Positions 26,831-30,559 of a stretch of 64,000 bases of DNA are shown in pieces. The translations under genes and the position numbers were made by a program. The notes under the pieces are model-generated. The model was not told the DNA's origin and ran no database searches. It was given only the letters and a program-made list of their open reading frames with translations. The DNA is taken from assembly GCA_051313645.2 (NCBI GenBank), contig JBNRSN020000012.1, forward strand, positions 59,954,001-60,018,000. The letters run 5' to 3'. Position 1 is the first letter of the stretch; every line of letters starts with the position of its first letter. The stretch comes from Centroscyllium fabricii (taxonomy: Eukaryota).

Positions 26831-27281
26831 ATAGAAAGATATGTGAAGAATCTCTACAAGATAAACATTTACAGCACAAAGTGTCACTTAGTCCATTGGG
26901 TGTGCTAGCTCTTTGTTAGAACAGCCCACTGCCCTGTATATTCCTCCACTTCAAATAGTTATCCACTTTCCCCTCAAAATGCACAATGGTCCATGGCTCA
27001 CTTACTCCGTGCAAAGCATTCATGATCTAACAATGCTCTGCATAAAGAAATGTATTCTGTCTCTTGACAGTTTGGAACTAAGGGCCCCTCATCACCAACC
27101 AGAGGAAGTAGTCTTTAACTACTCATCACACCAAAGCCCTTTTATCATTCTAAAAACCATTATTAAATTTCCTCTTCGCCTTCATGCTCCAGCAAAACGG
27201 TCTCAGTATTTCAAGTCTCTCCACACAACTATAGATTCCCATCCCGGACATCATTCTGAGCCACAGCTGGTCAGTCCAGTT

Positions 27282-27354
27282 GGTGGAGACAAAGTCAGCC
27301 TCTACGTGGCCTCCTCCACAAGTACCCGCTAACAATGGCGAAACTAATGACTTT
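27282..27354 (+). ncRNA. Candidate HDV-like self-cleaving ribozyme (Pr77-like) at LINE 5' end
   Basis: P2 AAAGTCA/TGACTTT, P3 GCC/GGC around TCTACGT, imperfect P1 GGTGGAG/CTCCTCC(ACA), P4 CGCTA/TGGCG, J4/2 AACTAA. Confidence 0.65.
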
Positions 27355-30300
27355 ACACCGCTCTCAGCAACCCCAACGTCCGAGGCAGCACGCGTCCTTC
27401 TCAGGACGGGCGGACCTGTCCGCCGAAAGCCTCGCCATCATACAGCTTAACGTCGAAGGCCTTACCACCGCCAAGCTCGACATCCTAGAGAAGCTTGCCA
27501 CAAACAACAAGGCAACCGTCGTGCTCCTGCAGGAGACTCACAAGGAAAATGACACCATCCTGAAGCTCCACGGGTACACACTAGCCGGCCACACCAAGAG
27601 CAGATACCACGGCCTAGCAACCTTCGTCAGAGAGGACGTACCCTGGTCACCAGCTGGTCAGTGCGCCGCCGACGCCGAGGTTGAGTGGACCGCCACTAAA
27701 GTGCAGGAGACGACTGTCGTGAATGTCTACAAGCCACCACCGAGCAAACTACAATCAGGCTCGCTGCCAGACGCCCCAGCCCCTGCCGTGTATGCCGGTG
27801 ACTTCAACTGCTGGAACACTGACTGGGGCTACAAGACCACCAACCCAGACGGCGCGTACCTGGCAGACTGGGCATCCACGGCAGACGCCGTGCTCCTGTT
27901 CAACCCGAAGGAGCCCCACTCATTCACCTCCAGGCGCTGGAATACCGAGACAAACCCAGACCTGGCCTTCGCCAAAGTCATCGGGCAAGAGCCACTCCCG
28001 GTACGGCGCGTCTTGGACCGATTCCCCCGCTCACAACATCGCCCGTCACTGATCACAACACCATCGCTCGTCCAGTCGACGGAGGGGAAACCAGTCCGAA
28101 GGTGGAACTTTCGCAAGGCCAACTGGTCGGAATTCGCCAGCAGCATCAATACTGCAGCCGAATCCTTGCCAGTGTCTACCGCCTCCAACATCGACGAGGC
28201 CTACAAGGCCTACTGCACGATGTTGATTGACGCCGCTAAGAAACATGTCCCGCGGGGAGTCCGGAAGAACTACGTCCCCTGCTGGGACGAAGAGTGCAAT
28301 GAACTCCTGCACGTCCACAACGAGGCCAAAACCAACGCCGAGAGGGCCAGAGCTGCCACAGACCTCATGACCCGGCTCAACAATAAACGGAGAGAGAGGT
28401 GGACCGAGACCGTCGAATCAATCGACTTCACCCACTCCAGCCGTCGAGCGTGGCAGACCATCAACAAGCTGACCGGCCAGGCAACAAAACCAAAACCGTG
28501 CCCCATCACTGCTGACGCCATTGCAGCACAGCTGATCACCAACGGGAGGTTCCCCAATGCCGACAAGGAGTTCACCAGGAAGACCACCGGCGAAGTGAAC
28601 GACCTACGCAGGGCCCCCAGCGCCGACGCCAACCTCTCTGGAAACTTCACCAAGGACGAGATCAAATTGGCTATCAAACACCTGAAGCCACACAAAGCAG
28701 CTGGGATTGACAACATCCACCCCGAGTTCATCCTGCACCAGGGTAGCAAGGCCATAGAGTGGCTTCGATCTTTCTGCTCCCTCTGCTTCCGCACGTCCAA
28801 GCTCCCGAAGATATGGCGACGAGCTAAGGTCATCGCTCTCCCGAAGCCCAACAAGTCGCTGGATGACCCAAAGGGATACCGCCCCATCGCCCTTCTCTGC
28901 GTGCCATACAAGATCATGGAACGTCTCCTCCATGCGCGCCTCGACCCGGTGATCGACCCAATACTGCCGAAAGAGCAAGCAGGCTTCCGCCACGGGAAGT
29001 CCACCGTGGACCAGGTAACCCTCCTCACCCAAGACATCGAGGACTCCTTCCAACGAGGTGAGAAGGCGGGCGTCGTTTTCCTTGATCTCACAGCAGCGTA
29101 CGATACCGTCTGGCTCCGTGGACTCCACCTCAAGCTCCTACAGACGATCCCGGACCGACACATGGTGGGCTTCATCATGGAGATGCTAACCAACCGCAGC
29201 TTCACCCTTCACACCAGCAACGGCCAACATAGCAGGCTCCGACGACTCAAAGATGGCGTCCCACAAGGCTCCGTACTCGCCCCGATGTTGTTTAACATCT
29301 ACATCCACGACCTCCCAGACACGCTGTCCAAGAAATATGGATATGCTGACGACCTCGCCATTCTTCTGTCCAACAAGAGCTGGGAGACGATCGAACTGGG
29401 GCTTACGGCTGATATGAACATCCTGTCAAGCTACCTGACAAACTGGCGCCTTAAGCTCTCCGTGGCCAAGACCATGTCTTCCGCATACCATCTAAACAAC
29501 CGAGAGGCAAGCCACGAGCTCAACATCATGGTTGACAACAACAGACTCCAGTTCCAGGCTGCCCCGACGTACCTCGGGGTCAAGCTTGACCGCACGCTGA
29601 CGTTTCGCCAACACCTGGAAAACTTGTCCGCCAAGACATCGGCCCGCGTCGCCCTAATACGCCGCCTAGCTGGTACCACCTGGGGTGCCTCGACCAAGAC
29701 ACTGCGCATCTCCACCCAGGCATTGGTCTTCTCCGCCGCCGAGTACTGCTCCCCAGTCTGGTGCAGGAGCTCCCACACCAAGAAGCTGGACACAACGCTC
29801 AACACCGCCTTACGCACAGTCTCTGGCTGCCTGCGCGCCACGCCGGTCAACCAACTACCGATACTCGCCGGCATCGCACCACCAACCCTGCGCCGTGAAG
29901 CAGCTGTCCTTGCACTGTCCCGAAAAGCCACCAACGATGAGGACCACCTTCTCCACAAGTTCGTCACAGAGATCCCTCCACGAGCTCGCCTGAAGTCACG
30001 ACGCCCATTCGCGGAGCACGCCCACCAGCTCCTGCATTCAACACCCGGTGATGTCACAAAACGAACCTGGCTCAAACGCCGCTGGACGAAGGAATGGCAG
30101 GCAGCAGATCAATCAAGGCTGCACAGATTTGTGGAGGAGCCGGATGAACTACTGGGCATGGACCTCCCTCGCCGGCAGTGGACAATGCTCAACCGCCTCA
30201 GGACTGGAGTCGGCCGTTTCGCCGCGACCATGAAAGGATGGGGACTCAGGGACTCGGCTGTCTGCGACTGTGGTCACCCTGAACAGACAGTCGATCACAT

Positions 30301-30406
30301 CATCGAGTCATGTCTAAAACATCGACCACCTAACGGCGAAGCCGGCATAGCTGCTCTAGACGACGAAACGCTAGCATGGCTTTCCTCAACCGAGCTGGTG
30401 ATCTGA
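27335..30406 (+). CDS. Retrotransposon polyprotein: APE endonuclease + reverse transcriptase + C-terminal CCHC finger, no RNase H (1023 aa)
   Basis: [74 protein letters not shown]; uninterrupted. Confidence 0.96.
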   Translation: MAKLMTLHRSQQPQRPRQHASFSGRADLSAESLAIIQLNVEGLTTAKLDILEKLATNNKATVVLLQETHKENDTILKLHGYTLAGHTKSRYHGLATFVREDVPWSPAGQCAADAEVEWTATKVQETTVVNVYKPPPSKLQSGSLPDAPAPAVYAGDFNCWNTDWGYKTTNPDGAYLADWASTADAVLLFNPKEPHSFTSRRWNTETNPDLAFAKVIGQEPLPVRRVLDRFPRSQHRPSLITTPSLVQSTEGKPVRRWNFRKANWSEFASSINTAAESLPVSTASNIDEAYKAYCTMLIDAAKKHVPRGVRKNYVPCWDEECNELLHVHNEAKTNAERARAATDLMTRLNNKRRERWTETVESIDFTHSSRRAWQTINKLTGQATKPKPCPITADAIAAQLITNGRFPNADKEFTRKTTGEVNDLRRAPSADANLSGNFTKDEIKLAIKHLKPHKAAGIDNIHPEFILHQGSKAIEWLRSFCSLCFRTSKLPKIWRRAKVIALPKPNKSLDDPKGYRPIALLCVPYKIMERLLHARLDPVIDPILPKEQAGFRHGKSTVDQVTLLTQDIEDSFQRGEKAGVVFLDLTAAYDTVWLRGLHLKLLQTIPDRHMVGFIMEMLTNRSFTLHTSNGQHSRLRRLKDGVPQGSVLAPMLFNIYIHDLPDTLSKKYGYADDLAILLSNKSWETIELGLTADMNILSSYLTNWRLKLSVAKTMSSAYHLNNREASHELNIMVDNNRLQFQAAPTYLGVKLDRTLTFRQHLENLSAKTSARVALIRRLAGTTWGASTKTLRISTQALVFSAAEYCSPVWCRSSHTKKLDTTLNTALRTVSGCLRATPVNQLPILAGIAPPTLRREAAVLALSRKATNDEDHLLHKFVTEIPPRARLKSRRPFAEHAHQLLHSTPGDVTKRTWLKRRWTKEWQAADQSRLHRFVEEPDELLGMDLPRRQWTMLNRLRTGVGRFAATMKGWGLRDSAVCDCGHPEQTVDHIIESCLKHRPPNGEAGIAALDDETLAWLSSTELVI

Positions 30407-30559
30407 CAACGGGATACTGAAGCAAACGAAAGAAGAAGTCCAAAAAGAAGTTACATTAACATTTGCTTGGTTTGCTGATCTCAGGGGAGATACGAAATAT
30501 CTACAGAAACCTTTGAAGTACTTCAAAGATGTTTCATTAGCTCTGCAACTCTGTCCTTG

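Follow-up and report, generated by a model that had tools for sequence, protein, structure and literature searches.

The window analysed here is a stretch of 64,000 nucleotides from the genome assembly of Centroscyllium fabricii (contig JBNRSN020000012.1). It carries a retrotransposon of 3,158 bp (27279..30436), a long interspersed nuclear element (LINE) with a single open reading frame (ORF) for an APE endonuclease, a reverse transcriptase (RT) and a CCHC zinc knuckle, and without RNase H. The best explanation, held with fairly high confidence, is a polymorphic, full-length Vingi-type LINE, one of about 2,200 copies that stem from a single burst, with a likely horizontal entry into the shark lineage. 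Papers are cited by PMC number, from excerpts.

The insertion in an ABCC5 intron

The element lies antisense to ABCC5, a minus-strand gene whose exon matches end at 26383 and resume at 32688 (Table 1). The neighbouring exon is closest to shark ABCC5 (88% in Carcharodon and Pristiophorus, against 71-81% in rays and at most 62% in tetrapods), and by this sequence the host is a shark. The assembly is 7.2 Gb in size, and the flank of the insertion is present in it once.

An empty allele was found in X6, a sequencing run from an organism referred to as B. A 1,806-bp contig of this run covers positions 26802-27272 and then continues from 30437 onward with one AGTCCA, a junction that proves the duplication and the empty allele and makes the limits of the insertion exact. 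Six flank pieces of X6 differ from the window at 6 of 4,247 positions (0.14%), a level comparable to the diversity inside one shark species (pi is 0.002 in the epaulette shark; PMC10587355), and organism B is either the same species or a very close one. An earlier, sequence-only reading of the window had proposed the 6-bp duplication and a possibly polymorphic insertion, to be checked against reads of the empty site, and both are borne out. Its limits of 27279 to 30436 also stand as those of the inserted DNA, but the element proper begins at 27282; the three bases before it are likely an addition made at integration.

In the window copy, the ORF runs without an internal stop to a TGA ending at 30406. 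The uninterrupted frame of 1023 aa described earlier is thus correct for this copy but not for the family: its ATG results from a C>T change at 27336 that is private to the window copy among 30 copies, and the family ORF starts 65 nt downstream of the element 5' end. The (AAG)n tail is likewise present, but it consists of only two to three AAG units, and its last AG is common to tail and duplication. The composition was also reported correctly, with 58.1% GC and a CpG observed/expected ratio of 0.88 in the element versus 43% and 0.45 in the rest of the window. This was rejected as a sign of foreign origin; it shows youth instead.

Table 1. Features of the element and its insertion site (window coordinates)
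Feature	Position	Strand	Basis or remark
Host intron of ABCC5	26384..32687	-	limits approximate, between tblastn exon matches
Left target-site duplication AGTCCA	27273..27278	+	sequence; single copy in empty allele
Extra bases GTT, duplication to first element G	27279..27281	+	
Predicted ribozyme of hepatitis delta virus (HDV) type, 73 nt	27282..27354	+	weak Rfam match, pair counts, nested fold
Ribozyme P1	27282-27288 / 27311-27317	+	
Ribozyme P2	27291-27297 / 27348-27354	+	
Ribozyme P3	27298-27300 / 27308-27310	+	
Ribozyme P1.1, single pair	27303 / 27318	+	
Ribozyme P4	about 27328-27342	+	
Upstream ATG	27335..27337	+	private to window copy, yields 1023 aa
Catalytic-C equivalent in CUAA	27344	+	
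Family ORF	27347..30406	+	1019 aa; start codon at ribozyme J4/2-P2 junction
APE endonuclease domain	27434..28057	+	Pfam, structure model, alignment
Reverse transcriptase core	28841..29482	+	Pfam, alignment; YADD at aa 666
CCHC zinc knuckle	30263..30313	+	alignment
3' untranslated region (UTR), 30 nt	30407..30436	+	ends in short (AAG)n tail
Right target-site duplication AGTCCA	30437..30442	+	sequence; empty allele

The encoded protein and the predicted 5' ribozyme

The protein matches Pfam Exo_endo_phos at aa 37-206 and RVT_1 at aa 503-716, and the APE residues N35, E63, D152, N154, D205 and H231 are conserved. The present protein has SQH where SDH is the usual motif; the Q is found in 57 of 65 relatives and is hence a trait of the group. 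The knuckle (C-x-C-x8-H-x4-C; C973, C975, H984 and C989) is invariant in all 65 aligned relatives, and a C-terminal CCHC knuckle is a feature of the Vingi group. The APE-RT-CCHC arrangement read earlier from the ORF is thereby upheld. One difference in the window copy, N636D, falls on a site that is N in 61/65 relatives. An AlphaFold model made with 66 sequences (pLDDT 89.5) consists of APE, RT and an all-helical C-terminal part, and its best solved structural matches are LINE-1 ORF2p and R2. RNase H gave no Pfam match, and only helices are predicted past aa 750, including the region between RT and knuckle; PF00075 is found in none of the 120 listed relatives. An NPGP-type 2A-like motif is present neither in the ORF nor in the 149 relatives scanned. 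As in the LINE literature, the protein would nick its target and reverse-transcribe the element RNA at that spot, with the (AAG)n tail used for priming.

This layout is that of Vingi elements, described as Vingi-1_EE from hedgehog and Vingi-1_Acar from anole (PMC13708176, PMC3708506, PMC5786205). The shared features are a single ORF of about 1,000 aa (993 aa is quoted) with APE and RT in an element of about 3.1 kb, dispersed insertion, the lack of RNase H and of a 2A-like motif (Vingi has no 2A-like peptide; PMC3708506), and internally deleted derivatives (here L046, L033 and L037). The difference is the shark host; no link between Vingi and sharks was found in the literature excerpts searched. 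In contrast, Ingi elements have both RNase H and a 2A-like peptide, and the present element has neither. All features of the Vingi layout that were tested (single ORF, about 3 kb, no RNase H) are thus present, as the sequence-only reading had it, and the element is termed Vingi-type by its layout.

The first 73 nt of the element are predicted to form an HDV-like ribozyme capable of cleavage. The core of such ribozymes consists of the first G, the L3 loop and a catalytic C in J4/2, and all three are present when the element is compared with RF02682, with an L3 loop identical to the consensus. Rfam returns one match, the RF02682 HDV ribozyme at 27282-27343 (17.5 bits, E 0.41). The 3' strand chosen by Rfam, which ends at 27343, was rejected because 27348-27354 covaries instead. 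The nested double pseudoknot of P1, P1.1, P2, P3 and P4 can be formed, with an imperfect P1 and a single P1.1 pair in this family (family 1).

The pairing was evaluated by aligning family 1 with a second, related family in the same genome (family 2, described below). In 5 of 15 pairs both partners differ from one family to the other, among them the single P1.1 pair and pairs in P1 and P2; with only two families, these count as five covariation events, not ten. Paired cells amount to 95.9%, versus 28-47% in slid controls. From inspection by eye and this alignment, P2 is preceded by CUAA in family 1 and CGAA in family 2, and in both families the AUG of the ORF is at the J4/2-P2 junction. Plain folding recovers P1, P3 and P4, although its z-scores for the 5' end are not significant (-0.8 to 0.1) under a method that scores no pseudoknots. 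Of 30 full-length copies, 13 start at the predicted first G.

Several points weigh against a catalytic ribozyme. The Rfam score is far below the gathering threshold of 44 bits, the covariation comes from two families with each change a single event, and an internal promoter starting at +1 would yield the same 5' ends. Moreover, the three 5' variants of family 1 (18, 1 and 1 of 30 sampled copies, the other 10 being truncated or otherwise different) are all flawed in P1, by a bulge (18/30 copies), a U-U pair (the window copy) or an A-C mismatch, and have one P1.1 pair. The 5' structure might then be a decayed or non-catalytic ribozyme whose pairing persists because it serves translation, the stability of the RNA or the binding of proteins, while an internal promoter sets the 5' end; the trypanosome Pr77 sequence doubles as a promoter (PMC3383444). 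This alternative is doubtful, though worth keeping in view, since both families keep the catalytic-C motif, the double-sided changes extend to P1, P2 and P1.1, and family 2 has a full P1 of 7 bp.

If the predicted ribozyme is active, it would cut the element RNA out of read-through host transcripts and set its 5' end, with the start codon placed within the last ribozyme helix. A 5' end made in this way would lessen dependence on host-specific promoters and could help the element to settle in new hosts. The closest parallel is Pr77 of Ingi/L1Tc, in a sister clade, which has an HDV-like fold in the first 70-80 nt and target duplications of about 11-12 bp (PMC3383444); the present element differs in having its start codon inside the predicted ribozyme. 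HDV-like ribozymes are listed for R1, R2, R4, RTE, Ingi as well as LOA, a list without Vingi (PMC5786205), and none is stated for Vingi in the literature passages searched, although older papers or patents may describe one. With covariation between two families as a guide, a Vingi 5' ribozyme can be put to a direct test. A ribozyme that overlaps the start codon could also explain a property of the anole Vingi-1, now under development as a tool for RNA-only gene insertion: its driver RNA “unusually retains” the 5' UTR (PMC13708176).

Many of the relatives P0001-P0149 start with M-S or M-T after K-L or similar (compare window 27347-27355), which fits first codons fixed by the last ribozyme helix. 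The read-through N-termini of P0054 and P0145 look like a translated ribozyme core.

Two young families in one shark genome

Family 1 is abundant and nearly uniform. Its 3' 27-mer occurs at 2,127 exact places in the genome, or 2,231 with up to three mismatches, its 5' 27-mer at 277 places and its ribozyme core at 308; ten of the extra ribozyme-core places were fetched, and all are family 1 at 99.2-99.6%. Of 1,436 candidates, 40 were scored, and these are all near full length with 99-100% identity. Divergence from the family majority is 95/40,358 (0.235%) and 71/31,183 (0.228%) in two position-ordered samples of 30 copies; per site, it is 0.62% at CpG and 0.17% elsewhere, calculated without two duplicate-flank loci. 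The full ORF is kept in 28 of the 30 best copies, and 26/30 have target duplications, mostly of 9-13 bp and nearly all with A first. Many copies are 5'-truncated and some 5'-inverted. A few variants are shared between copies (one of them by 7), which suggests several source copies.

The family thus appears from its sequences to be one young burst of about 2,200 copies with no older layer, and the earlier claim of a very young insertion agrees with the copy divergence. The window copy departs from the family majority at 8 private sites, close to the mean of 0.23% for the family, so that it is a typical member and not the youngest; it may be called pristine in being intact, but not in being unmutated. 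At a shark mutation rate of 7e-10 per generation (PMC10587355), a non-CpG divergence of 0.17% allows up to about 2 million generations, which counts against a recent event and restricts the word “recent” to mutation units; errors made in copying and variants already inherited would lower the generation figure by some amount. Set against shark diversity, the burst is young. An assembly artefact, either foreign DNA or a collapsed repeat, would account for a composition so sharply unlike that of the host, but its probability is negligible: it is refuted by more than 2,000 copies that are spread over many contigs and have individual duplications and flanks, by the high depth of the family in independent shark runs and by the exact empty site.

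The second Vingi-type family in the same genome is also young. It surfaced in a search with a teleost-type relative, is 62% identical to family 1 in amino acids and has open frames of 1,038 aa. Fifteen of its copies (L091-L105, e.g., G000:C1:435477353-435480500) have 0-8 differences per 2,069 bases, and 124 places have exact 5' ends. Family 2 is 90.8% identical in amino acids to a protein from the teleost Muraenolepis. The best full-length relatives of family 1 reach 83% and fragments up to 88%. The closest named relatives of family 1 are P0054 and P0211 of the sea star Patiria miniata (77% over 425 aa and 82% over 330 aa), with a similar N-terminus. Family 2 and the ribozyme are both points beyond the sequence-only reading.

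An RT tree was made with FastTree from unclassified relatives and CR1 outgroups only; 177 of 265 matches were long enough, and 109 of 181 rows were kept after removal of unnamed near-duplicates. In it, Patiria and family 1 share a clade (0.93), and the neighbour of family 2 is Muraenolepis (0.97). Since the two shark families fall into different clades, one beside a sea star and the other among teleost elements, the element tree conflicts with the host tree. The simplest reading of these sequences is that there were likely two separate entries into the shark, with family 2 entering independently from a teleost-associated lineage. The Patiria element is too distant to be the donor of family 1, and closer holders (93-97% in DNA) exist. 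A scan of metagenome contigs gave no relative of the element.

Some further observations concern individual copies. L046 is internally deleted, breaking off right after the last ribozyme helix and resuming at 28381, and is a bipartite derivative; L033 and L037 have 5' and 3' ends nearer than in full-length copies. The 5' part is inverted in L106, L107, L111 and L114 (4 of 10 fetched), as twin priming would give. L035, L041 and L042 have one 5' flank in common, which indicates a host segment duplicated after insertion. Family 2 has its own HDV-like 5' end, with a G-run in P1. A third relative, in low copy number, is hinted at by record 27 of X6 (window 29379-29814, 85% identity, low depth); when a 79%-related protein was used as the query, the 121 scored matches were all at the level of family 1, with no third, closer family among them. 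A 5S-headed short interspersed element, L122 (G000:C224:2639700-2641200), has an AAG tail that by eye resembles both Vingi 3' ends, but gave no significant blastn match to either family.

Probable horizontal transfer and its alternatives

Part of the element is held by 20 of 23 listed runs, from 10 studies. Eight runs, one for each of organisms A-H, were compared over 25700-36000, with the shark repeats of the flanks as a control. X1, a fish gut run (share 0.90), was left out, as diet and host are indistinguishable in it.

Three organisms are shark-like, with the shark repeats present: A has 9 listed sites off the family majority (0.3%), B (X6) has about 0% divergence of the element, and D differs from the window copy at 62 of 3,150 positions (98.0% identity). 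Organism E is different. Its run X12, with 2.76 Gb of contigs, holds the element over its whole length with 57/2,141 differences (97.3% identity), whereas at 80% likeness its sequence barely covers the shark repeats and the flanks: its repeat bins have values of 0 to 3.5, with one AT-rich bin at 31, versus up to 772,000 in X6. Depth on the element climbs from about 200 to more than 2,800 toward the 3' end, a profile like that of an endogenous LINE family. Another study (X17, share 0.20) also lists organism E. Carry-over from this shark is excluded as the source in X12, since it could not yield an element that is diverged and lacks accompanying shark repeats. More distant versions are found in organism G (X18; 107/1,613 differences, 6.6%) and organism H (X19; 118/2,309, 5.1%), with depth of at most 2.9 outside the element in both.

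Neither X10 (organism C) nor X16 (organism F) was accepted as a sign of transfer. In both, the element is about 100% identical, its depth is low and traces of shark repeats accompany it, which looks like carry-over of shark DNA; X10 also has a signal of the second family, and another run of organism C has none of the element words. Lists of holders alone can thus mislead.

On these sequences, it is likely that the element entered the shark lineage by horizontal transfer, a direction that is inferred. The sequence-only reading had named it a transfer candidate, a proposal strengthened by the 97.3% identity in X12 almost without shark repeats and by the place of the family beside a sea-star element in the RT tree. 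Some points count on the other side, besides the carry-over in X10 and X16. The designation of E, G and H as non-shark rests on their lack of shark repeats, and the runs of G and H are small and possibly RNA. No listed run is marked as an RNA holder. D is a shark at 98.0%, so that a vertical history or shark-to-shark spread is possible. Purifying selection between organisms was rejected: 22 synonymous and 18 non-synonymous differences, at listed sites only, give a synonymous excess not different from that within the genome (Fisher p 0.38).

These points could be combined into vertical inheritance, in which sharks retained a Vingi lineage at low copy number that burst recently in this species, with the non-shark holders being contamination or shark-derived. 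Three shark-like samples do contain the element, diverged by 0.3% in A, about 0% in B and about 2% in D, sharks mutate slowly (PMC10587355), and X10 and X16 show that carry-over happens. This history is nevertheless improbable, given that the element in X12 is deeply covered and 2.7% diverged while shark repeats are nearly absent there, that the host is without older copies of the family, and that the nearest named relative is an echinoderm element while the two shark families lie in different clades. Four alleles common to D and E were found in none of 55 sampled host copies, about half of which cover those sites, and accordingly no older layer in the host leads back to D or E. Export from sharks to E would itself be horizontal transfer.

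Horizontal transfer has many precedents among aquatic animals, and the present case is clean and new but not a new kind. One survey reports 975 retrotransposon transfers among aquatic vertebrates, 93.7% of them in ray-finned fishes (PMC7070016). The present case resembles these in that distant hosts have almost identical elements and a burst came afterwards, but differs in being still polymorphic. In the main text of that survey neither sharks, cartilaginous fishes nor Ingi are named; sharks also go unmentioned in the main text of PMC12400950, and the supplements of both may include them. A Vingi of narrow divergence in the locust was read as a recent invader (PMC3391268); PMC5753468 and PMC13343379 serve as background only. 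The element offers a well-resolved case of a retrotransposon invading a shark, a group unnamed in the main text of two large transfer surveys. Donor-side relatives with 93-98% identity in public runs would make the route traceable once those runs have names, and polymorphic insertions could provide population markers for a slowly mutating animal.

A wider view can be put forward only tentatively. A Vingi lineage may now be spreading across marine animals; it would have entered a minimum of two lineages of sharks and three animals that are not sharks within 2-7% of sequence change, and would still be segregating in a shark. The ribozyme with its start codon would then act as a host-independent module for RNA release and translation, hence the easy crossing between phyla and the double invasion.

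Organism E has a variant 3' UTR (X12, window 30415). One of its 5' pieces departs from the element at 27324 and may be a non-autonomous derivative.

Elsewhere in the window, every other LINE is broken, as noted earlier: by the ORF list and comparison, no other LINE frame is longer than 236 aa, and the remains are CR1 or other fragments. The CR1 fragments at 10874-12664, 44675-45816, 47764-48758 and 61487-62944 are 5'-truncated and 91-96% identical to copies elsewhere in the genome. A minisatellite at 36070-36301 has a 23-bp unit in 9.8 copies with 96% matches.

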